Assembly: GCA_964388175.1 (NCBI GenBank)
Contig: CAYLYS010000003.1
Span: 6,870 to 70,869 of the forward strand
Length of the DNA stretch: 64,000 bases
From: an uncultured Chromatiales bacterium
GTDB lineage: Bacteria; Pseudomonadota; Gammaproteobacteria; SZUA-140
Direction: 5' to 3'
The notes below the pieces were generated by a model, which saw only the letters and a program-made list of their open reading frames with translations, was not told where the DNA came from and searched no databases. Position 1 is the first letter of the stretch, and each line of letters begins with the position of its first letter. The position numbers were made by a program, and so were the translations under genes. Of the stretch, positions 49,901 to 57,945 are shown in pieces.

Positions 49901-50971
49901 ATCGCGGTGCTTGGGCACGAGCTGCGCAATCCGATCGGTGCGATCAGCAATGGAATCGAGCTGCTGAAGTCGACATCACTTGCGCCCGATCAACAGACAC
50001 AGATCGTCGGTATGCTGGAGCGGCAGATCGGCTACATCGCCCGTCTGCTCGACGATCTGCTCGATATCGCGCGCGTCATCTCCGGCAAGCTCGATATCGC
50101 GCGCAAGCCCGTGGATTTGATCGAAGTGGCGCGGTGGGCGCTCGACGCCTCCATGTCGCAGTTCAGCGCCAAGACGCATGAGATCTCGTTTACCCTGCCG
50201 CCCGCCAGAACGGTCTGGGTGCGTGGAGATCAGCTCCGCTTGCACGAAATTCTCGTGAACCTGCTCGACAATGCCGCCAAATATACGCCCCGTGGCGGCT
50301 GCATTACGCTCGAGATCGTCGCGGATGCTGAACAGGCCACGATCAGCGTGCGTGACACCGGCATTGGTATCCCGCACGATCTCAAGGAGCATATTTTCGA
50401 GATTTTCACCCAGGGACCGCGCACGCTCGAGCGCCTGGATCGCGGCCTGGGTATCGGTTTGTCACTGGTGTACAGCTTGGTGAAGCTGCACGGGGGCGAG
50501 GTCGAGGTGTTCAGCGCCGGCGCAGGCCAGGGCAGCGAGTTCAGGGTCAGGCTGCCGCGTATCCAGCATGCCGGAGAGGCGGCGCAGCCGGCTGACCATG
50601 GGCAGGAGCCGCTGCCGACACAAAGGTATTCTCGCGTCCTGATTGTCGATGACGAGGGTGACGTGGCGGATTCGCTCCAGCAGCTGCTCAAAGCGCTCGG
50701 CCATGAGGTGCAAGTGGCCGCGAACGGGTCGGCGGCATTGGACAGGGTGCAGACCTTCAAGCCCGAGATCGCCTTGCTCGATCTTGGACTGCCCGGTATG
50801 GATGGCTACAAGCTGGCGCGTCGCTTGCGTGATGAACTGCCGGAGGTGGTGTTGATTGCGATAACGGGCTATCAGGCGGATAGCGACCGCCTCAAGGCCG
50901 CGGGGTTTGACCATCATATGATCAAGCCGATCAGTATCGAACGCCTGTCGCGTTTGTTGCATCTGAAGTGA
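46934..50971 (+). CDS. Giant hybrid signalling protein: CheB methylesterase + CheR methyltransferase + coiled-coil + PAS domains + HisKA/HATPase_c + C-terminal receiver
   Basis: 1345 aa: CheB-like N-terminus (GASAGGLDA...VLSGAGHDGTEGL), CheR (FFREPAVWERL...WVAGCATGEEAYSLAM), ELQSSNEELEASKEELEALNEE coiled coil, H-box VLGHELRNPIGAI, G-boxes, REC (RVLIVDDEGDVADSL...DLGLPGMDG). Confidence 0.85.
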   Translation: MPENPRMGIAINEPTLYVGVGASAGGLDACGELLAAVPADTGMAFILVLHLDPTRTSHLAQILQQHASNLTIVQAEGTTRLERDHVYVIAPNSKLHLVDGMLEVDPLAEDEARGQLVDYLFSSLAEAQRTRAVGVVLSGAGHDGTEGLGRIKAAGGLTIAQAPVTAGSTGMPSSAINAGVDAVLAPDAIPAALIAFAEHGVRPLPRHAEDGNDGPGGARDQMIGFASILHQIGTMADIDFDDYKPGTLQRRALRRMNLKGIETWDDYAHYLGDNPDELDALYRDVMIGVTEFFREPAVWERLAAELPALLESRGEPGARAWVAGCATGEEAYSLAMILFEQLPEKDRGKIQIYATDINEHALAIARRGIYAAEALQGVSHERREQHFKHHDGQFKVGDCLRSCVSFAPHNVLSDPPFSRMDIVSCRNLLIYLKPQAHDRLLKSLHFALRPGGLLVLGRAETLGRQTRLFDEISKPQNIFRSRAIPQHERFRVDPRTREHSHGIRQAVPLPLVIPAHLRESAPDRRIDQFVLRQHTPACVVINADFEIRSFYGQTQPYLAPPTGESHQDLLAWMRPGFYIRLRSALKQVAESGEPLVVEGQIDRDGEIRHVQCAIEQIPPVVNAEGMLLVTFQDIGASTPRKIDPAAAHEPLVHELEMELIATRRELQSTIEQLDVAGEGYRASHEELMSLNEELQSSNEELEASKEELEALNEEMNTINRELEEKNGELRVANNDLNTLFLSTGIPTVFLDRELKVRRFTPTATTVMHLVPSDIARSIEHVKERVGDGHTADKSRQVLRTAEPDTTEVWSEGGERCYVRSILPYRSEEGTLDGVCITFSDVTEQKTVAQANEAALAYSEAIIEVVRTPLLILDRERRILSVNRALQLAYGVGPELLGSSLTQAQDQPWNVSAIDDAVAAVSSGGGEVKDLEVVVHDRTILVNVRLVHSRAGEDRILLSFEDATQQREFQRRSEQRAAEFKGDERRKDEWIAVLGHELRNPIGAISNGIELLKSTSLAPDQQTQIVGMLERQIGYIARLLDDLLDIARVISGKLDIARKPVDLIEVARWALDASMSQFSAKTHEISFTLPPARTVWVRGDQLRLHEILVNLLDNAAKYTPRGGCITLEIVADAEQATISVRDTGIGIPHDLKEHIFEIFTQGPRTLERLDRGLGIGLSLVYSLVKLHGGEVEVFSAGAGQGSEFRVRLPRIQHAGEAAQPADHGQEPLPTQRYSRVLIVDDEGDVADSLQQLLKALGHEVQVAANGSAALDRVQTFKPEIALLDLGLPGMDGYKLARRLRDELPEVVLIAITGYQADSDRLKAAGFDHHMIKPISIERLSRLLHLK

Positions 50972-51374
50972 AGCGGGGCGGTAGGTATACCAGGGTTCCT
51001 TGGCGCCGCGGCCGGGAACAGGCCAAGGGTCTGCCTGCAGAGCAAGCCGTTACTTCGAAGTTGCCAGAACGATTGCTATTTATGCAGGTTTCCTGTTGTT
51101 CTTAACGACAATCGCAATTTCCGTTGCAATATATGGGAAAATCCTTGCCATTAGGGGCGATAAACCGACCTACGGGAGGTTTGCAAAAATCCTGCTCTAT
51201 ACTGTGATGCTATACATCTCGCTTCCGTATATGCAGTTAGAGCTAAATGCATTCTATGGCCCTGCCGTATCCAAGGCGCCATCATTGTAGGCCGAAGAAT
51301 TGGGACGGTCATGCTCCGCTGATTGCTCGACACCAGCGCAAAGGAAGGACTTCCAAGCCACTAGAGGCGATACC

Positions 51375-51717
51375 GTATTTTGTGCCAACGCACCAGGAAT
51401 TGGTGGCGGGGTGGCTGCAGGATACGGACCGCAAGACCAAGCCGTTTCTGTTCCATCACGACGCGGTGAACAGCGTCAGCGAGGTGACGGGGCACAATGG
51501 CGGGACAACGCAAAGTGTCCTCTACCGATCATTCGGGCAGACGCAATCGACGACGGCAGCAGCCCGAACCGACTGAAGTACACCGGGCGAGAGGATGATG
51601 GGACGGGGCTCTATTACTATCGAACCCGGTACTGCTGGGTTTTAGGGCGGGGATCAATTTCTATGCCTATGCAGGGAATAATCCGATCAATGCCAATAAT
51701 CCCAATGGATTGGATAA
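51375..51717 (+). pseudogene. rhs fragment 1: YD-repeat end plus RHS core remnant, broken across three frames
   Basis: HQELVAGWLQDTD...FHHDAVNSVSEVTG..SVLYRSFGQ (frame A), SSPNRLKYTGREDDGTGLYYYRTRY (frame B), AGINFYAYAGNNPINANNPNGL (frame C). Relative to the intact copy at 52790-53010 there is a deletion of the YDPAIGRFVSEDPIRFK segment. Confidence 0.55.
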
Positions 51718-52152
51718 CTCAATAGTGTTTCATTCGGCGGAACTGCAGCAATCCTGCTTCTCGGAATAGGTGGAAATGTGAGCGTTGGCATTTCTGTTCC
51801 TGATGACTTGACTAATTGGCGTGGCTGCCGGGTATTCGGCGGTGCGCAAGCAAACCTAATGGCGGGCGGGGGTGGCTACTTGGGGTATGGTGTCAGCGCG
51901 GGAAAGGTCGAATCGGTTGGGCCATTGGATCCCAGTTTTAATTTGGATAATGGCTGGTATGCTGAGGCTGACGCAGGTATCGGGAGTGCGGCTATTGGTG
52001 CAAGCCTCCAAGGCCACGGAAAGCCTTTTAGTAGTTTGCCTTCTGGTGGAAGTGTCACTCCGCTTCCAAAGGTTGGCCAAGGCGCCGGCGTTTGGGTATC
52101 GCCGATAGGAACCTATGGTTCTGCGACTGCAGCATCATATACACATCGGTGA
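51718..52152 (+). CDS. Orphan rhs C-terminal tip CT1: Gly-rich, glycine-zipper-like putative toxin domain, out of frame with its core remnant
   Basis: …SFGGTAAILLLGIGGNVSVGISVPDDLTNWRGCRVFGGAQANLMAGGGGYLGYGVSAG…SATAASYTHR; reading frame opens right after the core NPNGL motif. Confidence 0.4.
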   Translation, partial: LNSVSFGGTAAILLLGIGGNVSVGISVPDDLTNWRGCRVFGGAQANLMAGGGGYLGYGVSAGKVESVGPLDPSFNLDNGWYAEADAGIGSAAIGASLQGHGKPFSSLPSGGSVTPLPKVGQGAGVWVSPIGTYGSATAASYTHR

Positions 52153-52543
52153 TGTCGTAGATGGCGTGACAGCGCTGTTCGGTGCTGTTGCCAGCTCTCC
52201 CGCGCAGAGTGCCGCAGCAAGCGGCGGGTTCCTTTATTTACCCGAACAAAGTAAACAACAACATGATGATTTCGGTATATTCAAAGTGACCAAGTATAGG
52301 AGCTTTGCTTCCTATTATGAGCTAGCGATTCTCCACGCATCCAAGTGGATTCTCACGGCTGTTTTATTTGTTTCTGCATTTATCTTAATCTTAGCGTGTA
52401 TTGATTTGATGGCGCCAATTTTCGCTGGCGCCTACGATTGGCGCACGGTCATGTGGGGAATCTTCATGATGATACTTTCTTACACAATTCGTCGCATGAT
52501 TGTTCGCCGATTGACATCAATCCGAAAAGAAACGAACTTCTGA
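52115..52543 (+). CDS. Putative immunity-like membrane ORF after CT1 (start uncertain; likely GTG/ATG within 52160-52420); contains a frameshifted echo of the conserved toxin tail (ASGGFLYLPEQSK)
   Basis: C-terminal part …KWILTAVLFVSAFILILACIDLMAPIFAGAYDWRTVMWGIFMMILSYTIRRMIVRRL has 2 TM helices. Confidence 0.3.
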   Translation: MVLRLQHHIHIGDVVDGVTALFGAVASSPAQSAAASGGFLYLPEQSKQQHDDFGIFKVTKYRSFASYYELAILHASKWILTAVLFVSAFILILACIDLMAPIFAGAYDWRTVMWGIFMMILSYTIRRMIVRRLTSIRKETNF

Positions 52544-52690
52544 CGAAGAGAACCTACCAGGGCTCGACCACCCGCTACGTCTACAACGCGGCGAATAGCG
52601 TTGGCACAACCACCTACACCTACGATGTGCTCTACTGCCTGACCGCCGTCAACCGTCCTGACACCGCCAACAACGAAGCCTATACTTTGG

Positions 52691-53563
52691 GTGCGCTGCC
52701 CCCGAACTTCGAACGCCCGCTACTTTACTACACTGCAAACACCAACCTGGAGCGCTACTTCCGGGGATCGAGCATCGACGAATTGGTGGCGGGGTGGCTG
52801 CAGGAGCAGCCCGAACCGATTGAAGTATACCGGGAGGGAGGACGACGGAACTGGGCTCTATTACTATCGCGCACGATACTATGATCCAGCGATAGGACGG
52901 TTCGTTTCGGAAGATCCAATCCGATTCAAAGCTGGCATAAATTTCTATGCCTATGTGACAAACAACCCGATTAACTATAATGATCCGACCGGAGAAATCG
53001 AGAACTGGCCAGGCGCGGTACGGCAAACTATAGGGATAATCGGGAATGCAGTTGGTGCTGTAGGTGGGCTTGTAACGAGTGGTGTAGGCGTGGTTCTCGT
53101 GGCCGCTCCCGAGCCCACCATGTTGAGCACGGCAACCGGAGTGCTTCTAATTCCTGCAGGGGGCTTCATGTATGGCTCCTCTGTGGATGGGATGAAGGAG
53201 AATTTCAATGCCCTGTTTGATAACATCTATGGAACTAGCACGCCATACGCGCCCGAGTTTAAAAATACCGTTACAAGTGGATTAGGTTTCAGCCCAGGCA
53301 ATCCTACTGTAAGCGGTATATATGACGCCGCCTCGTTCGCGGCCGGGATCCCGAGCGGGAGGATTGTAACTCAGCTGGGAAACTTACCATCAGCGCTTAG
53401 TACGGTTTCAGATATTGATGTCACTATAAGAGGGGTGGAATCTCTGATCGATTCATCGTCAACGATTTACGATTCGTTGTCACCCGGCTCGGCAAGTGGA
53501 GGTTATTTGCTGTACCCAAATAAACCAAACATGAATATGCTTCAAAGTGTGTATCAGAAATAG
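52691..53563 (+). CDS. Orphan rhs C-terminal fragment 2: intact RHS core end (NRLKYTGREDDGTGLYYYRARYYDPAIGRFVSEDPIRFKAGINFYAYVTNNPINYNDPTGE) fused in frame to a ~185-aa toxin domain (CT2) ending in the conserved tail
   Basis: Classic RHS core signature followed by IENWPGAVRQTIGIIGNAVGAVGGLVTSGVGVVLVA... and ...SASGGYLLYPNKPNMNMLQSVYQK*. The upstream YD-repeat piece (52540-52810, ...TYTYDVLYCLTAVNRPDTANNEAYT...DELVAGWLQ) is in another frame, so the module is N-terminally truncated and frameshifted. Confidence 0.6.
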   Translation: MRCPRTSNARYFTTLQTPTWSATSGDRASTNWWRGGCRSSPNRLKYTGREDDGTGLYYYRARYYDPAIGRFVSEDPIRFKAGINFYAYVTNNPINYNDPTGEIENWPGAVRQTIGIIGNAVGAVGGLVTSGVGVVLVAAPEPTMLSTATGVLLIPAGGFMYGSSVDGMKENFNALFDNIYGTSTPYAPEFKNTVTSGLGFSPGNPTVSGIYDAASFAAGIPSGRIVTQLGNLPSALSTVSDIDVTIRGVESLIDSSSTIYDSLSPGSASGGYLLYPNKPNMNMLQSVYQK

Positions 53564-53574
53564 CGGACGAGAGT

Positions 53575-53763
53575 ATGTTATACGGACTGTTAACATTGTT
53601 AATAGGTATTCTGATGTTGCTTTTTTCTCTGAATATTCTAACGCTGAAGAGTGCTCAGGCGGGAGATTTATGTGTGCTAAAGGAAAGATATGGCGCTTTT
53701 TTTAAGGTGCTTGGCGCGCTGATGATTGCCCACGCTCTGTTTACTCTTATAGGGGTTTACTAA
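53575..53763 (+). CDS. Putative immunity protein for CT2 (62 aa, 2 TM)
   Basis: MLYGLLTLLIGILMLLFSLNILTLKSAQAGDLCVLKERYGAFFKVLGALMIAHALFTLIGVY; starts 12 nt after the CT2 stop. Confidence 0.45.
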   Translation: MLYGLLTLLIGILMLLFSLNILTLKSAQAGDLCVLKERYGAFFKVLGALMIAHALFTLIGVY

Positions 53764-53816
53764 TTCTTAAAATTCTTGAGATTGCGATAAGCACAGGCGT
53801 TTTTGGCGTCCTCGGT

Positions 53817-54053
53817 GTGTATTTTTATCAGGTAAATAAAAAGAAGAAATTAAATAGAGGAAATAGGTGTGCTCGTTGCGGAGAGCATTTGGAGATGGGG
53901 AAATCTGTAAGGATGTCGGCATCGTATCGAGCATTTCTATTCTGCAGCGCTTGCGCGGAGCGAGAAAAACAAGCTGATGGAATTTTCTTTCTTGTATCAG
54001 CCTCGGCGGTTGCTGCATTGGTTGTGGTTTATTTGTGGAGCTTGCAAGAATAG
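53817..54053 (+). CDS. Small zinc-ribbon (CxxC...CxxC) protein with C-terminal TM helix
   Basis: RCARCGEHLEMG...FCSACAEREK...IFFLVSASAVAALVVVYLWSL; GTG start. Confidence 0.35.
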   Translation: MYFYQVNKKKKLNRGNRCARCGEHLEMGKSVRMSASYRAFLFCSACAEREKQADGIFFLVSASAVAALVVVYLWSLQE

Positions 54054-54074
54054 TGAGCCTGCCTGTGGCTCGGT

Positions 54075-54150
54075 TCCTATGCTGTAGCAGCATAGCTTGA
54101 GCCCCTGTGTACTGCTGACCTGTGTACTGCCGATAGGCAATCTTCTATCG
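54075..54150 (+). repeat. Cassette-junction repeat, copy A (contains the inverted repeat CTATGCTG-TAG-CAGCATAG)
   Basis: ~75-bp segment nearly identical to 56234-56300; each copy lies just downstream of an immunity-like ORF and upstream of an rhs remnant. Confidence 0.6.
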
Positions 54151-54250
54151 ATTCCGTTCGAGCTTCCAAAATTTCAGCGCGAGTGGAGGATTCCTTGTTT
54201 ACCCTAACAAGTCAAATATAAACATGATGCAGTCAGTGTATAGGAAATGA
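54139..54250 (+). pseudogene. Remnant of a toxin C-terminus retaining only the conserved tail (…FQNFSASGGFLVYPNKSNINMMQSVYRK*)
   Basis: 37-codon open frame starting after TAG within the junction repeat; tail motif matches CT2 and CT3. Confidence 0.45.
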
Positions 54251-54585
54251 ATACCTTTATCTCGATCGTTAGGCGCGTTGCTTTGTGTGTTGTGTTTTCT
54301 TTGTTTTGTGGGTATGCATTTCTATCAGTAGAATCTCTAGTTTGTGGTTCATCCGGCGGAGGTTCTTCTGCGGGTGGTGGGGCCGCAGTGGGTATGCTCG
54401 CCATCGCTGTGGCTATCGGAATGTTCGTGGTTACGTTTCTACCTTTGGCTATTGTTGATGTTGGGAGAGGGGCTGGCGTCTGGCGCCTTTCGTTGACTTT
54501 CAAGAGAGAGTTTATTTTTGTGTTGGGAGTTTTTTTGGCAATTCAGATTGTTTTAGGCGGCGTGTTGTTTTTTAAAGGATGTTAA
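54247..54585 (+). CDS. Putative immunity membrane protein (112 aa, 3 TM), ATGA-coupled to the tail remnant
   Basis: MNTFISIVRRVALCVVFSLFCGYAFLSVESLVCGSSGGGSSAGGGAAVGMLAIAVAIGMFVVTFLPLAIV... Confidence 0.45.
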   Translation: MNTFISIVRRVALCVVFSLFCGYAFLSVESLVCGSSGGGSSAGGGAAVGMLAIAVAIGMFVVTFLPLAIVDVGRGAGVWRLSLTFKREFIFVLGVFLAIQIVLGGVLFFKGC

Positions 54586-54837
54586 GGGCCGGTAAGTAGT
54601 TTTGTGTTTGTGATACAGCGCAGCTATTACTGAAGGATGCGGTTCGTATGAGACGGTAATCGCCCTAGTAATTTTAGATAATTTAAATAGATTGTCTGAG
54701 ATTAAGATGTTCAAAAGAATATACATGGTGGTAAATCGCTGATTCTTGCGTAACCATCGCGCCGCTGCGCGCCGATAGGGAAATCAATCGCTATTTCCTG
54801 ATGCAGCATGCCGTGCTTCAACAGAGGAGGAGAGGGT

Positions 54838-54996
54838 ATGGTTGCCGACCCCTGCAAATCGCCAGAGATACCGTATCCAGCGCCAGTGCCCAGATTACTA
54901 TGCTCCAAATCTCGCCGCGAACACGCAAGGAAAATTCGGTCCGCATCCGTTACGATCCGCAGAATGTTGTCCTGCAATAAATCCAATGAAGTATAA
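54838..54996 (+). CDS. Small basic Cys-containing hypothetical protein with a very strong SD
   Basis: GAGGAGGAGAGGGT-ATG; MVADPCKSPEIPYPAPVPRLLCSKSRREHARKIRSASVTIRRMLSCNK. Confidence 0.3.
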   Translation: MVADPCKSPEIPYPAPVPRLLCSKSRREHARKIRSASVTIRRMLSCNKSNEV

Positions 54997-55306
54997 CCTT
55001 GTAGTCATGATGGCTGGGGTGGCGTTCCTAGTCTTGGGTGCGCACTCTATTTTTTTCGATATGCCTGGTCTAGGTATGGTGGTGTGATCGATTTTGGCGA
55101 CGATCATATAGTAGGGGGGGTAATCAGGGTCGTTATTGGGTTGATACTAATTTACTTCGCAAGGACCGCTAAGTGACAATCAACAGAGAATCCGGATATC
55201 TGTAGCATGCAGATTTCACGCCCGCTTCGCACTAAGTACAAACTACTATTGCCTGCTGCGGAATGCCGCATAGACCGCGAACACCGCAACAGAAATCGAC
55301 GGCGAT

Positions 55307-55534
55307 GTGATCCCGCGGGGCGGTGGCTCTGTGGTTAAGACCTTCACCACGAACTCGGCGGGCTTCCTGAACGTGGATCTGTGGGATTTGTTTACTCCCG
55401 ACGGCTTCGATGTGCTGGAGCTTCGGATCATGAATCCGGCCAATCAGACAGTGCTGCTCCTGAACGGAGCGTGGGGGGGGGTGATTCCGGATCTTTCAAC
55501 GCGGAGGCGAACAGCCTCTACACTGTGCAGGTGA
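55307..55534 (+). pseudogene. rhs-related fragment containing a G9 homopolymer tract (55473-55481) and ending at an in-frame TGA directly before CT3
   Basis: …VKTFTTNSAGFLNVDLWDLFTPDGFDVLELRIMNPANQTVLLLNGAWGGVIPDL…LCR*; a G9 run is slippage-prone. Confidence 0.35.
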
Positions 55535-55537
55535 ATT

Positions 55538-55906
55538 GTGGCTATGCATGGTGTGTTTGATGACACGTTCCGCGACATACCATCGAATATTGTAAAGATG
55601 CAGGAGGTCGGCATCTTCGCCAGAGACTTTGACGACGCCGTAGGGAATGCGCAAGAGTTTTCCAATGTTACGAACCAGAATGCAATTCCATATTGGCCTC
55701 TTGGGCCAAACAGCAACTCATACGCTTCGACGTTTGTCGAGAGCTTTACTGGTTCTCGTCCCAACCCCATTGTGAGCGCGCCAGGGTCAGATATGGGCCG
55801 GCCTTCGTCAGCACTGCCCTACTCGCCAGCGCCGGCTTCCGGCGGCTTCCTCATATATCCAAACAAGCCGAATACCAATTTTTTGCAATGGGTCTACGCG
55901 AAATAA
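55538..55906 (+). CDS. Orphan toxin domain CT3 (122 aa) ending in the conserved tail
   Basis: GTG start one codon after TGA in the same frame as the upstream fragment; …NAIPYWPLGPNSNSYASTFVESFTG…PASGGFLIYPNKPNTNFLQWVYAK*. Confidence 0.45.
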   Translation: MAMHGVFDDTFRDIPSNIVKMQEVGIFARDFDDAVGNAQEFSNVTNQNAIPYWPLGPNSNSYASTFVESFTGSRPNPIVSAPGSDMGRPSSALPYSPAPASGGFLIYPNKPNTNFLQWVYAK

Positions 55907-55921
55907 GGGGCAGCGTAAGCT

Positions 55922-56251
55922 ATGATTGACGTGAAGCGGTTCATGCGCGTGATCATGTTAGCTTGCATAGCAATGATTACGAGTGCCTGCGAGGGGAGCT
56001 GTGAATCAATGGCAAAACAAGTAAGAGCTAACCTTGAGGAACAGCTTCACGTCGGGGACAGTAGGGAAAAAATTGAAGCTGTTCTGCAAAGCATTGGAAT
56101 ACGATATTCCTACGACGAGTTCTCTAATCGCTATCAAAGTACGGTTCGGGAGGAGTGCGGAAAATTTGAAGCTGTCAGCGTGTATGTAAATCTTGACGAT
56201 CAAGGCCGGCTGTCAGCCATTGAGGTGTTTAATTCCTATACCTGGCTGTAG
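55922..56251 (+). CDS. Putative lipoprotein immunity protein for CT3 (109 aa)
   Basis: MIDVKRFMRVIMLACIAMITSAC lipobox-like signal, then soluble domain; starts 16 nt after the CT3 stop. Confidence 0.45.
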   Translation: MIDVKRFMRVIMLACIAMITSACEGSCESMAKQVRANLEEQLHVGDSREKIEAVLQSIGIRYSYDEFSNRYQSTVREECGKFEAVSVYVNLDDQGRLSAIEVFNSYTWL

Positions 56252-56300
56252 CAGCATAGATTGAAAGCCCGATCCCTGCCGATAGACATCTTCTACTGAC
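56234..56300 (+). repeat. Cassette-junction repeat, copy B
   Basis: Matches 54075-54150 (gctgtagcagcatag…gccc…tgccgatag.c.atcttcta…); an additional shared segment g.gatgccgcatagac…gc.gcaac at 55262-55300 and 56310-56343. Confidence 0.6.
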
Positions 56301-56398
56301 TCCGGCTGTGGGATGCCGCATAGACAGTCAGCGCTGCAACTAAAAAGGCGAGGGCATAAACGGATTTCGCCACCCCGAGACCCTTCGTATCGCTCGGC

Positions 56399-56824
56399 TT
56401 GATGGTTATCGACCAAAACAGCCTGACCATCGCTACTCTGAATGCACCAAGAAGTGTTCAGTTCGAGGCCGAGGACTCCGTATACACGGTGATAGTGACC
56501 GGCATTTCGGGAGGATCTCTTGGGTTCTTCGGACTGAATGTCACAGGGTCCGTATTTCCAATCACCAACTATATCTACGACGGAGTCTACCGTCTGACCG
56601 CGGCAGACCGGCCCGCCACGGCCAACGATGAAGCTTTCACCTATGAAAGGCGAGAATTGACGCTTCAGGTTAGCGCCGGACGGCGGGCAGGCGAGGAGGG
56701 GAAGGCGGTCGAAATCGCTTTCTTGGATTTGGGCGTTGCAGAGGGATATGGCAGACACTTGGCGGCCACACTGGGCCGCGGACGGCAAATAGGAGCGAGG
56801 ATCGCCAGCGGGATAGTGTCTTGA
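56399..56824 (+). pseudogene. rhs fragment 4: YD-repeat end region (NYIYDGVYRLTAADRPATANDEAFTYE) without a downstream core
   Basis: Paralogous to 52600-52700 (TYTYDVLYCLTAVNRPDTANNEAYT); truncated. Confidence 0.5.
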
Positions 56825-56897
56825 GCCGATGAGCCCTATTTGCTAGAATCAATATTAATCAAAGTGATTTATTTTGAATCAAGGCAGGAGGAATGCC

Positions 56898-57167
56898 ATG
56901 GCCAAAGCTGAGACTCGCGTGCTAACAGCGCATGTACCCGCTCCGCTGGCGGACAAGGTAGATCAGCTGGCCAGCCGCCTCGATCGTTCGCGCGGTTGGA
57001 TCATGAAGCAGGCCCTCGCTTCCTGGATCGCCCAGGAGGAAGAGCGCGACCGGCTGACACACGAAGCGCTGGACGACGTGGATGCCGGCCGCGTCATCGA
57101 TCACCAGGCCGTGCAGGCATGGGCGGACAGCTTGAGCACGGATCAGCCGCTGCCAGAGCCTCGCTGA
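56898..57167 (+). CDS. Ribbon-helix-helix antitoxin (ParD/CopG type)
   Basis: MAKAETRVLTAHVPAPLADKVDQLASRLDRSRGWIMKQALASWI…; AGGAGG SD; stop overlaps toxin start (TGATG). Confidence 0.7.
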   Translation: MAKAETRVLTAHVPAPLADKVDQLASRLDRSRGWIMKQALASWIAQEEERDRLTHEALDDVDAGRVIDHQAVQAWADSLSTDQPLPEPR

Positions 57168-57442
57168 TGGATTTGAAGTGGACCAGCAAGGCGCTTGCCG
57201 ACTTGGCACGCCTGCATGAATTCCTGGCCCCTGCAAACAAGCTTGCCGCCGCGCGGGCGGTACAGGCGCTGACCAAAGCGCCAACAGTTCTGCTGACCAA
57301 TCCACGTATCGGCGAGCAACTGTTCCAGTTCGAGCCGCGCGAAGTTCGGCGGATCTTGGTCGGGCAGTACGAGATGCGTTATGAGATTGCGGACGGAACT
57401 GTCTATGTGCTGCGGCTCTGGCATACCCGCGAGGAACGATAG
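57167..57442 (+). CDS. ParE/RelE-family toxin
   Basis: MDLKWTSKALADLARLHEFLA…RIGEQLFQFEPREVRRILVGQYEMRYEIADGTVYVLRLWHTREER. Confidence 0.75.
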   Translation: MDLKWTSKALADLARLHEFLAPANKLAAARAVQALTKAPTVLLTNPRIGEQLFQFEPREVRRILVGQYEMRYEIADGTVYVLRLWHTREER

Positions 57443-57858
57443 CGAAGCTGAGCGACACCGCCGGTGTAACGCTGAAGGCCTTGGGCGGCGCTTTCTTGGT
57501 GGAAATCACCACGCGCACCGGGGTCTGCGGTCTTGGCAAAGGCCCGTGGTTCGGAGTCGCGTCGGTTCGGCCAATCCAACCCGCGTCGTTTCCGCGTGTC
57601 TTGTCAGGCGCGCAGAGGAACAACCATTACACATATGCCCCGGTATGATCCATCTGAAGAGCACCCATGAGGCAGAAGCCGTAGTCCGAGCCATGGATCA
57701 ATCGAAATACGTTCACGGGGAGAGCATCAGGATCGGGTGAGGGTTCGGAATCGGACGGGGGGTGGAGACGGAACCGATCGCCGCCAGGCAACAGAGACCG
57801 GCTGGGAAGGCGCGGGCATCTACTGGTAGGATGGAGCTTGAAGGGATATCAGAACGTT

Positions 57859-57945
57859 TGGTGCCGAGGAGAGGACTTGAACCTCCACGGGGTTTCCCCC
57901 ACTAGCACCTGAAGCTAGCGTGTCTACCAATTTCACCACCTCGGC
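57859..57945 (-). tRNA. tRNA-Leu (anticodon CAG), CCA encoded; its 3' end faces the island
   Basis: Reverse complement GCCGAGGTGGTGAAATTGGTAGACACGCTAGCTTCAGGTGCTAGTGGGGGAAACCCCGTGGAGGTTCAAGTCCTCTCCTCGGCACCA, near-identical in architecture to E. coli leuT-type tRNA. Confidence 0.9.

Follow-up and report, generated by a model that had tools for sequence, protein, structure and literature searches.

Orphan Rhs cassettes of an uncultured Chromatiales bacterium share a C-terminal tail and carry putative membrane-active toxin tips

Toxins that attack membranes and are paired with transmembrane (TM) immunity proteins are already known, among Rhs effectors of type VI secretion systems (T6SS; Tse5), in contact-dependent growth inhibition (CDI) and among colicins. 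The Rhs-encapsulated C-terminal toxin of Tse5 (Tse5-CT; RhsP1, PA2684; Pseudomonas aeruginosa; 149 aa) lies directly behind a DPxGL core, has predicted TM and amphipathic helices and no enzymatic signature, forms ion-selective pores and causes depolarisation, and its immunity protein Tsi5 has 2 TM segments in the cytoplasmic membrane (PMC9637101). CDI ionophores of the CdiA-CT EC93 group dissipate the membrane potential, combining an entry part with a membrane-spanning helical part that has a putative glycine zipper, and are matched by two-helix CdiI proteins of 72-100 aa (PMC11630599). Tse4 (PA2774), a glycine-rich depolarising T6SS toxin that forms ion channels (PMC12169545), was first called a glycine zipper, while Halvorsen et al. 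report an AlphaFold2 (AF2) beta-barrel resembling Ntox25 (PMC11630599). Tde1, a T6SS DNase of Agrobacterium, has a tandem GxxxG at its N-terminus that permeabilises the membrane and serves translocation (PMC10240207). Zhang et al. (2012) described Sec-dependent RHS toxins in which a signal peptide and RHS repeats are combined with variable toxins and with a transglutaminase (TGase)-like domain devoid of the catalytic Cys, suggested that the dead transglutaminase binds peptides, and listed a single pore-forming RHS tip, Tox-WTIP, with two TM helices and a Wx[ST]IP motif (PMC3482391). The stretch analysed here (the window; 64,000 nucleotides of an uncultured Chromatiales bacterium, GenBank assembly GCA_964388175.1, contig CAYLYS010000003.1, positions 6,870 to 70,869) carries four successive Rhs C-terminal toxin/immunity cassettes. 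Two of these, with tips termed CT1 and CT2, probably encode membrane-damaging toxins, and all four end in a common 23-residue tail that appears to have been undescribed until now.

By analogy, the nearest counterpart of the CT2 cassette would be Tse5-CT/Tsi5, as a small tip without enzymatic signature follows a DPxG core and is itself followed by an open reading frame (ORF) for a 62-aa, 2-TM protein. However, no sequence similarity between the two was detectable, and in phmmer searches of PDB the alignments to Tse5 were confined to the core (query residues 7-63). Tse5 is an effector of the T6SS and carries PAAR, whereas the subfamily found here has a Sec signal and a TGase-like partner; in addition, the tips here are tailed, CT1 is of beta type and the window copies are orphan. 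CDI ionophores differ in delivery (CdiA/CdiB with VENN, rather than an Rhs cocoon with a DPxG core) and show no sequence relation to either tip; their five-helix-bundle fold was not recovered for CT2, and CT1 is not helical. Compared by description, CT1 is like Tse4 in being Gly-rich, predicted all-beta and accompanied by a TM immunity partner, but it has no Pfam Ntox match, and Tse4 is Hcp-borne and not an Rhs tip. CT2, unlike Tde1, lacks a nuclease domain and is paired with a TM peptide, while the immunity protein of Tde1 is soluble.

An initial annotation, made from the sequence alone, had likened both tips to CDI toxins. This assignment was rejected, since the motif before each tip is that of an Rhs core (NNPINANNPNGLD, 51680-51718, for CT1; NNPINYNDPTGE, 52964-52999, for CT2). 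TIGR03696 (RHS repeat-associated core) matches 52805-52999 (E=6.8e-24; 84 bits, cut-off 32.5), and the cassette 2 core fragment also matches Rhs/Tc cores in PDB (E=1e-13 to 1e-8; E=5e-13 and weaker for 52805-52999). Upstream of this core, 52543-52800 aligns to the YD-repeat regions of full-length Rhs proteins, with a weak, sub-threshold match of Pfam RHS_repeat to the cassette 2 fragment (E=0.026). No VENN pretoxin motif was present in three-frame translations (covering 50800-57200), and Pfam and NCBIfam scans gave no FHA or TPS families. The window cores share 60-67% identity with the cores of tail-bearing Rhs proteins of Methyloversatilis, Variovorax, Thiobacillus and Aquabacterium (L024, L067, L031 and L070), and a betaproteobacterial source is plausible. 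Judged by these cores, the cassettes derive from the Sec signal/transglutaminase-type Rhs subfamily, although both the TGase gene and the shell are missing from the window. The class of Zhang et al. is taken as the parent system; their description mentions no C-terminal tail, and in the genomes compared here, unlike in that class, the TGase-like part is often a separate upstream gene (~890 aa).

The four cassettes of the window end in A-x-GGF-h-h-YPNK-x-N-x-N-MMQSVYSK-COOH, with the stop codon directly after; a more general form of the tail is A-x-GGF-(L/V)-(L/I)-YPNK-x-N-x-N-MMQSVY-x-K-COOH. When one-genome-per-species bacterial contigs and viral contigs were searched with the degenerate DNA pattern for GG(F/Y)xxYP(N/S)KxNxN, 88 stretches matched, against ~0.03 expected from an information-content estimate; none of the viral contigs did. 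Among 126 occurrences of the tail, the stop lies 8 residues (111) or 9 residues (11) after the second N, and positions not forced by the pattern are conserved as well (A at -2, 92%; V17, 92%; Y18, 98%; K20, 99%). The four window tails share 11-16 of 22 residues, with third codon positions 23-45% identical; such near-random third positions indicate selection on the peptide and not on the DNA, and a role of the tail as a DNA-level recombination site was rejected on these grounds. Neither Pfam nor NCBIfam has a model that matches the tail, PDB searches with it gave no match, and tail strings were in none of the papers searched.

The region between core and tail is highly variable (128-248 aa, mostly ~160-250), falling into at least 40 unrelated clusters. 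Many of the tips are Gly-rich and hydrophobic, and others resemble lytic transglycosylases, lipases or peptidases of the VanY/M15, YkuD and HExxH types. The 116 ORFs downstream of tail cassettes comprise 42 predicted multi-TM proteins, 25 with signal-peptide- or lipoprotein-like N-termini and 45 that are apparently cytosolic, including SMI1/KNR4-like proteins; given the last group, the proposal that the tail marks periplasm-acting toxins only was rejected. Full-length carriers have a Sec signal peptide, a DUF6531 plug and RHS repeats, and no PAAR or VgrG; Pfam matches in L024 support this domain set. In all 10 loci with visible upstream DNA, a TGase-like gene (~890 aa) either lies directly upstream or is fused. 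Inspection shows no catalytic Cys in the TGase-like protein, which reads GNDVDLAS; the motif of the Transglut family is GvCrdfA. The subfamily is a widespread, environmental one, with members among Beta-, Gamma-, Delta- and Alphaproteobacteria, Nitrospirales and Nitrospinia; cultivable carriers include Thiobacillus denitrificans DSM 12475, Aquabacterium commune DSM 11901, Methyloversatilis thermotolerans 3t and Denitromonas iodatirespirans IR-12. Tail-less versions of the same toxin folds exist on Rhs cores of other subtypes or in different contexts, namely CT1-family members P0033, P0035, P0037 and P0039, on GRF(L/V)QADP-type cores, and CT2-family members P0044, P0048, P0051 and P0086. We consider it possible, at somewhat less than even weight, that the tail is a system-specific C-terminal handling signal of a Sec-dependent, T6SS-independent Rhs delivery pathway in Gram-negative bacteria. 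It could serve in docking to the cocoon, as an exit leader, or as a ligand of the dead TGase-like partner.

Small membrane proteins were said by the initial annotation to be encoded after both tips, and this is borne out: hydrophobicity gives 2 TM segments for each of the two ORFs (52286-52543 and 53575-53763), and a partner of the same kind is kept throughout both families. Wherever the ORF downstream of a CT2-type cassette could be read (eight cases: L001, L007, L010, L014, L040, L073, L080 and the window), it encodes a small 2-3-TM partner (61-120 aa), and both CT1-type cassettes (L002 and the window) have a 2-TM partner of 78-85 aa, making 10/10 readable CT1/CT2-family cassettes. Such invariable partners fit toxins that are met and neutralised within the membrane, and the downstream TM ORFs are putative immunity genes. 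Across 73 non-redundant cassettes of this Rhs class, toxins with hydrophobic Gly/Ala-rich N-termini are enriched next to multi-TM partners (11/28 vs 7/45; odds ratio 3.5, p=0.03).

CT2 starts at 52991 with EIENWPGAVRQTIGIIGNAVGAVGGLVTSGVGVVLVAAPEPT, and its reading frame is unbroken from the core through the stop. One close homologue, P0001, was found by word-indexed search (44% identity, with the same architecture and neighbours). The wider family includes toxins from the genomes of Denitromonas (L040), Methyloversatilis (L080 and L073), L007, L010 and L014 and, from the representative library, P0041, P0042, P0047, P0049, P0050, P0083, P0098 and P0112; the profile used on that library included the P0001 Rhs core, so that its 210,602 matches at E<=0.001 describe Rhs cores and not the CT2 family. 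The first 80 residues of CT2 contain a strongly hydrophobic stretch (Kyte-Doolittle mean over 19 residues, KD19, 2.05), and the quoted peptide IGIIGNAVGAVGGLVTSGVGVVLVA was confirmed at ~53030-53107. Six GxxxG motifs are present, against 3.1 in shuffled sequences (p=0.06). Down to ~25% identity, the family keeps G22, G26, G33 and G50 almost without exception, and residues 22, 26 and 33 lie on one helical face. An AF2 model from an 11-sequence multiple sequence alignment (MSA) has helices at 6-38 and 44-80 (pLDDT 61-69), with G22xxxG26 and G33 on the first; the remainder is helical and unreliable (mean pLDDT 50). Foldseek of this model against PDB gave nothing significant (best E=1.2), and the top hits, the alpha-pore-forming toxins SmhB/AhlB, are not counted as evidence. 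Conservation in the family, the shared tail aside, is limited to Gly, Pro and one Ser. No invariant polar or catalytic-type residue other than this Ser was found, which argues against an enzyme.

The CT1 family consists of P0031 (from a Sulfuriferula metagenome-assembled genome), P0033-P0037 and P0039, all of which follow an Rhs core. The peptides quoted earlier for CT1 are likewise present, in frame +1 of 51724-52149 (SVSFGGTAAILLLGIGGNVSVGISV...GGGGYLGYGVSAG...GAGVWVSPIGTYG; also written SVSFGGTAAILLLGIGGNVSVGISVPDD...GGGGYLGYGVSAG...GQGAGVWVSPIGTYGSATAASYTHR, then stop). CT1 is 19% Gly, with 3 GxxxG motifs against 6.2 +/- 2.0 in composition-matched shuffles and 4 [GAS]xxxGxxx[GAS] motifs against 5.9. 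Its best 19-residue hydrophobic segment is marginal (KD 1.77; family average 1.50) and contains a polar turn (GGN, GAS, NGS or QAG) that breaks it in all members of the family, indicating a strand-turn-strand unit and not a TM helix. Family-averaged hydrophobicity has a period of 2, as in beta strands, in 112 of 130 windows of the profile (mean beta moment 1.04, alpha 0.53). An AF2 model from a 9-sequence MSA, used for secondary-structure tendency only, has 8 strands, one 3-residue helical turn and no long helix (pLDDT 38, unreliable). By hhalign, the family is related to a second beta-rich tail-bearing family (probability 84%, E=7.5e-6) that has the same ...G-x-G-h-h-h...ATPT ending. Invariant positions are glycines, one proline and E81-x-D83. 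With GxxxG below shuffles, beta periodicity and no segment of TM-helix grade, a helical glycine zipper was rejected for CT1. The glycine-zipper character proposed by the initial annotation for both tips therefore failed for CT1 and fared better for CT2, through its hydrophobic stretch and near-invariant glycines, with motif counts that are marginal. CT1-type toxins would instead have an amphipathic Gly-rich beta architecture, according to these predictions, and might, on a reading given somewhat less than even weight, constitute a new family of beta-barrel-type membrane pore toxins.

Nothing enzymatic was recognised in either tip, in line with the earlier observation that nuclease or deaminase motifs are not apparent. 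Pfam and NCBIfam scans of CT1, CT2, the fourth tip (CT4) and all immunity-like ORFs recognised the Rhs core and nothing else; for CT1 and CT2, Pfam had no hit at E<=1, colicin pore domain and Ntox included. PDB sequence searches with CT1 and CT2 singly, the CT1 family profile and the tail profile gave no family match, and the Wx[ST]IP motif of Tox-WTIP was not seen in CT1 or CT2 on inspection of the sequences.

Membrane attack is the best reading for both the CT1 and CT2 families, and we hold it to be moderately probable, as the partners follow the Tsi5- and CdiI-like pattern. The general proposal of membrane-active toxins is retained, while its zipper mechanism is dropped for CT1. CT1 and CT2 belong to two unrelated, unannotated toxin families, both most likely directed at the cytoplasmic membrane of the target cell and acting by formation of pores or ion channels with depolarisation, and in each case the cognate small 2-3-TM protein would neutralise the toxin inside the membrane. 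CT2 may do so by means of a helical hairpin that is long and hydrophobic and has glycines conserved along one face, and CT1-type toxins through the beta architecture described above. Several points weigh against membrane attack. GxxxG enrichment is absent in CT1 and marginal in CT2, mean AF2 confidence is low for both tips and Foldseek was null. The invariant E-x-D of the CT1 family (YAEADAG) could be catalytic, and ~110 uncharacterised residues of CT2 lie beyond the hairpin. Furthermore, 6 of the 18 Gly/Ala-rich hydrophobic N-termini precede soluble downstream ORFs (~120-270 aa in the clearest cases; L077, L086, L067, L052 and L078), and a TM immunity protein could block entry rather than plug a pore.

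In the main rival for CT2, the hydrophobic start of CT2 (possibly also of CT1-type toxins) is a translocation segment that takes a toxic domain in the C-terminal ~110 residues across the inner membrane of the target, with the TM protein blocking entry. Tde1 is a precedent (PMC10240207), as is the two-domain organisation of CdiA-CT (PMC11630599), and since similar N-termini precede soluble partners in the same Rhs class, the motif alone cannot separate a pore-former from a membrane-entry module; before soluble-partner toxins these N-termini are, by analogy, more plausibly entry modules. For CT2, however, the post-hairpin region has no invariant polar or catalytic residue and no enzyme-family match, and the tiny partners, with almost no soluble part, have the pattern of ionophore or pore immunity (Tsi5, CdiI of the EC93 group) and not of nuclease immunity. 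With the tiny partners conserved and no catalytic residue conserved, we regard this explanation as rather unlikely. Further tail-bearing toxins with Gly/Ala-rich N-termini were seen in L092 and L024, and most of the L077, L086, L092, L067, L024, L052 and L078 loci have soluble downstream ORFs of ~190-270 aa; their N-termini are candidate glycine-zipper entry modules of cytosolic toxins.

That CT1- and/or CT2-type toxins are no pore-formers and act at the surface of the membrane on an envelope target, for example lipid II, undecaprenyl-phosphate or a complex of membrane proteins, with an anchored immunity protein that sequesters the toxin, is improbable in our estimation. E81-x-D83 of the CT1 family would suit such an enzyme or binder, other tail-bearing toxins look periplasm-acting (SLT-, VanY/M15-, YkuD-, lipase- and HExxH-like), and the signal-peptide or lipoprotein N-termini of 25 of the 116 downstream ORFs point the same way. 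Against this, CT1 and CT2 match no enzyme family or solved structure, and their immunity-like proteins have essentially no periplasmic domain with which to bind a soluble enzyme. That the Gly-rich hydrophobic stretches are compositional noise in decayed DNA is scarcely credible, even with CT1 a pseudogene with several frameshifts and GxxxG counts not above shuffles, and is refuted by intact homologues of both tips (44-58% identity) with the same architecture and kind of neighbour and by the conservation of the CT2 glycines across the family.

The membrane reading concerns the toxin families, while the window copy of CT1 is a dead pseudogene. CT1 had been taken to follow its core directly. By three-frame translation, and by tblastn with a full-length Rhs C-terminus and with P0031, it is out of frame with that core, which has at least two frameshifts, runs through three frames and has lost a DPxxGRF...F segment (YYYRTRYCWVLGRG stands where YYYRARYYDPAIGRFVSEDPIRFKAG is expected). 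The stop at 52150-52152, at which the interval 51718-52152 had been ended, was created by a frameshift, as both the intact homologue P0031 (58% identity; ~70 further residues) and the window continue past it. In the window the sequence runs on in frame 2 (IGDVVDGVTALFGAV...AASGGF) and frame 0 (FIYPNKVNNNMMISVYSK, then stop), giving a true C-terminus of ...GGFIYPNKVNNNMMISVYSK that ends at 52289. A separately assembled Logan contig (L094, from SRR16797981) differs by 3 SNPs over 2216 bp and has identical frameshifts throughout, making an assembly artefact of the window unlikely, though this run is the sole public sample found with the genome and a read-level artefact is possible.

The four cassettes fill a low-GC island (40-53% GC at ~51000-57800, compared with ~62% for the whole window; Table 1). 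A tRNA-Leu gene and a ribbon-helix-helix (RHH) ORF at its right edge fit a tRNA-associated genomic island. No Rhs-sized ORF is present anywhere in the 64 kb, and the main rhs gene, shell and delivery domain are not there; the array consists of orphan Rhs cassettes, heavily decayed, and is not a functional rhs gene.

Table 1 Coordinates of the Rhs cassette array and adjoining features (window positions)
Feature	Position	Strand	Remarks
CheB-CheR-PAS-HisKA/HATPase-receiver fusion gene, 1345 aa	46934-50971	+	CheB methylesterase and CheR methyltransferase; directly upstream of island
Cassette 1	51394-52289	+	Core remnant and CT1; then 2-TM ORF 52286-52543
Cassette 1 core, decayed	51394-51718	+	tblastn with Methyloversatilis Rhs C-terminus: high-scoring segment pairs (HSPs) in frames 3, 2, 1; ends NNPINANNPNGLD
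CT1 body	51724-52152	+	Gly-rich domain, ~140 aa, predicted all-beta; pseudogene fragment; 58% identity to intact P0031
CT1 remainder	52133-52289	+	Two further frames: linker IGDVVDGVTALFGAV...SAAASGGF, then tail FIYPNKVNNNMMISVYSK, stop; tail HSP 52221-52286
Tail copies	52221-52289, 53492-53563, 54164-54250, 55835-55906	+	In window; homologues also elsewhere (L001-L092)
Immunity-like ORF 1, 85 aa, 2 TM	52286-52543	+	GTG start (inferred) overlaps CT1 stop; homologous 78-aa 2-TM ORF after P0031 in L002
Cassette 2	52543-53563	+	YD/core fragment and CT2; then 2-TM ORF, then Zn-ribbon/TM ORF
Cassette 2 YD-repeat and Rhs core fragment	52543-52990	+	One frameshift and deletion near 52800; ends NNPINYNDPTG
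CT2, 190 aa, frame intact	52991-53563	+	Predicted hairpin ~53006-53230, helical region, tail 53492-53560, stop
Immunity-like ORF 2, 62 aa, 2 TM	53575-53763	+	Homologous 61-69-aa 2-TM ORF after P0001 in L001, L082, L083
CxxC...CxxC zinc ribbon and C-terminal 1 TM ORF, 78 aa	53817-54053	+	tblastn homologues at same relative position in L001, L082, L083
Cassette 3	54164-54250	+	Conserved tail alone remains, last 28 codons (FQNFSASGGFLVYPNKSNINMMQSVYRK, stop)
Immunity-like ORF 3, 112 aa, 3 TM	54247-54585	+	By hydrophobicity
Cassette 4	55274-55906	+	Different toxin type, NQNxIPYxPxGPNSNSYA motif; in-frame stop 55532-55534; tail 55835-55906; no Rhs core upstream
Immunity-like ORF 4, predicted lipoprotein, 109 aa	55922-56251	+	Homologue after CT4-type toxin in L001
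Stray Rhs YD-repeat fragment, array end	56360-56824	+	tblastn matches to YD regions of many tail-bearing Rhs
RHH (CopG-type) antitoxin-like ORF	56874-57167	+	Right edge of island, after stray YD fragment
tRNA-Leu(CAG) gene	57859-57945	-	Right edge of island

The zinc-ribbon/TM ORF that follows the CT2 partner could be a second immunity or accessory component. Homologues of the cassette 4-type toxin are present in L001, L056 and L018, with toxin and lipoprotein paired in L001 and L056. Cassette 4 and the terminal YD fragment each have, just upstream, a copy of a 53-nt direct repeat (72% identity; 55243-55295 and 56293-56345). The repeat contains a small palindrome (TGCGGAATGCCGCA) and may represent either a hairpin element or a joint left by recombination. 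Promoter-less orphan arrays of rhs core-fragment, toxin and immunity cassettes, lying downstream of main rhs genes, are reportedly known from Enterobacteria (accounts attributed to Jackson, 2009, and Koskiniemi, 2014), where recombination at the conserved core is suggested to exchange such cassettes into the main gene. Unlike those, the present array stands alone at a tRNA gene, has no main rhs within 64 kb and is heavily decayed. With CT1 dead and CT2 devoid of shell and signal peptide, neither would be deliverable as it stands; the cassettes would be of use only as a reservoir for recombination, with protection as a possible role of the immunity genes.

Two further arrangements were seen among the tail-carrying loci. 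In L003 (9302-10243; GCA_006844825), a 2277-aa TGase-fused Rhs protein reaches a stop, beyond which the reading frame goes straight on into the tail-bearing P0009; this stop could be a nonsense mutation or a site of programmed read-through. The Rhs operon of L003 is preceded by a gene for a secreted alpha/alpha-toroid (SQHop-cyclase/TED-like) and leucine-rich repeat (LRR) protein with a C-terminal TM anchor, and 5' fragments of the SQHop-like/LRR gene recur in orphan arrays as fusions with either YD fragments or toxin tips (L001, L002, L003, L029, L050, L082 and L083).

A conserved tag at the far end of the hypervariable region is unexpected for Rhs proteins. If the reading of the tail as a handling signal is true, any toxin fold would be deliverable by placement between the Rhs core and the tail. 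The tail offers a handle on how non-T6SS Rhs cocoons load, hold and release their toxins. It is also a sequence probe for new toxin/immunity pairs, about one third of which have multi-TM partners and may be membrane toxins.

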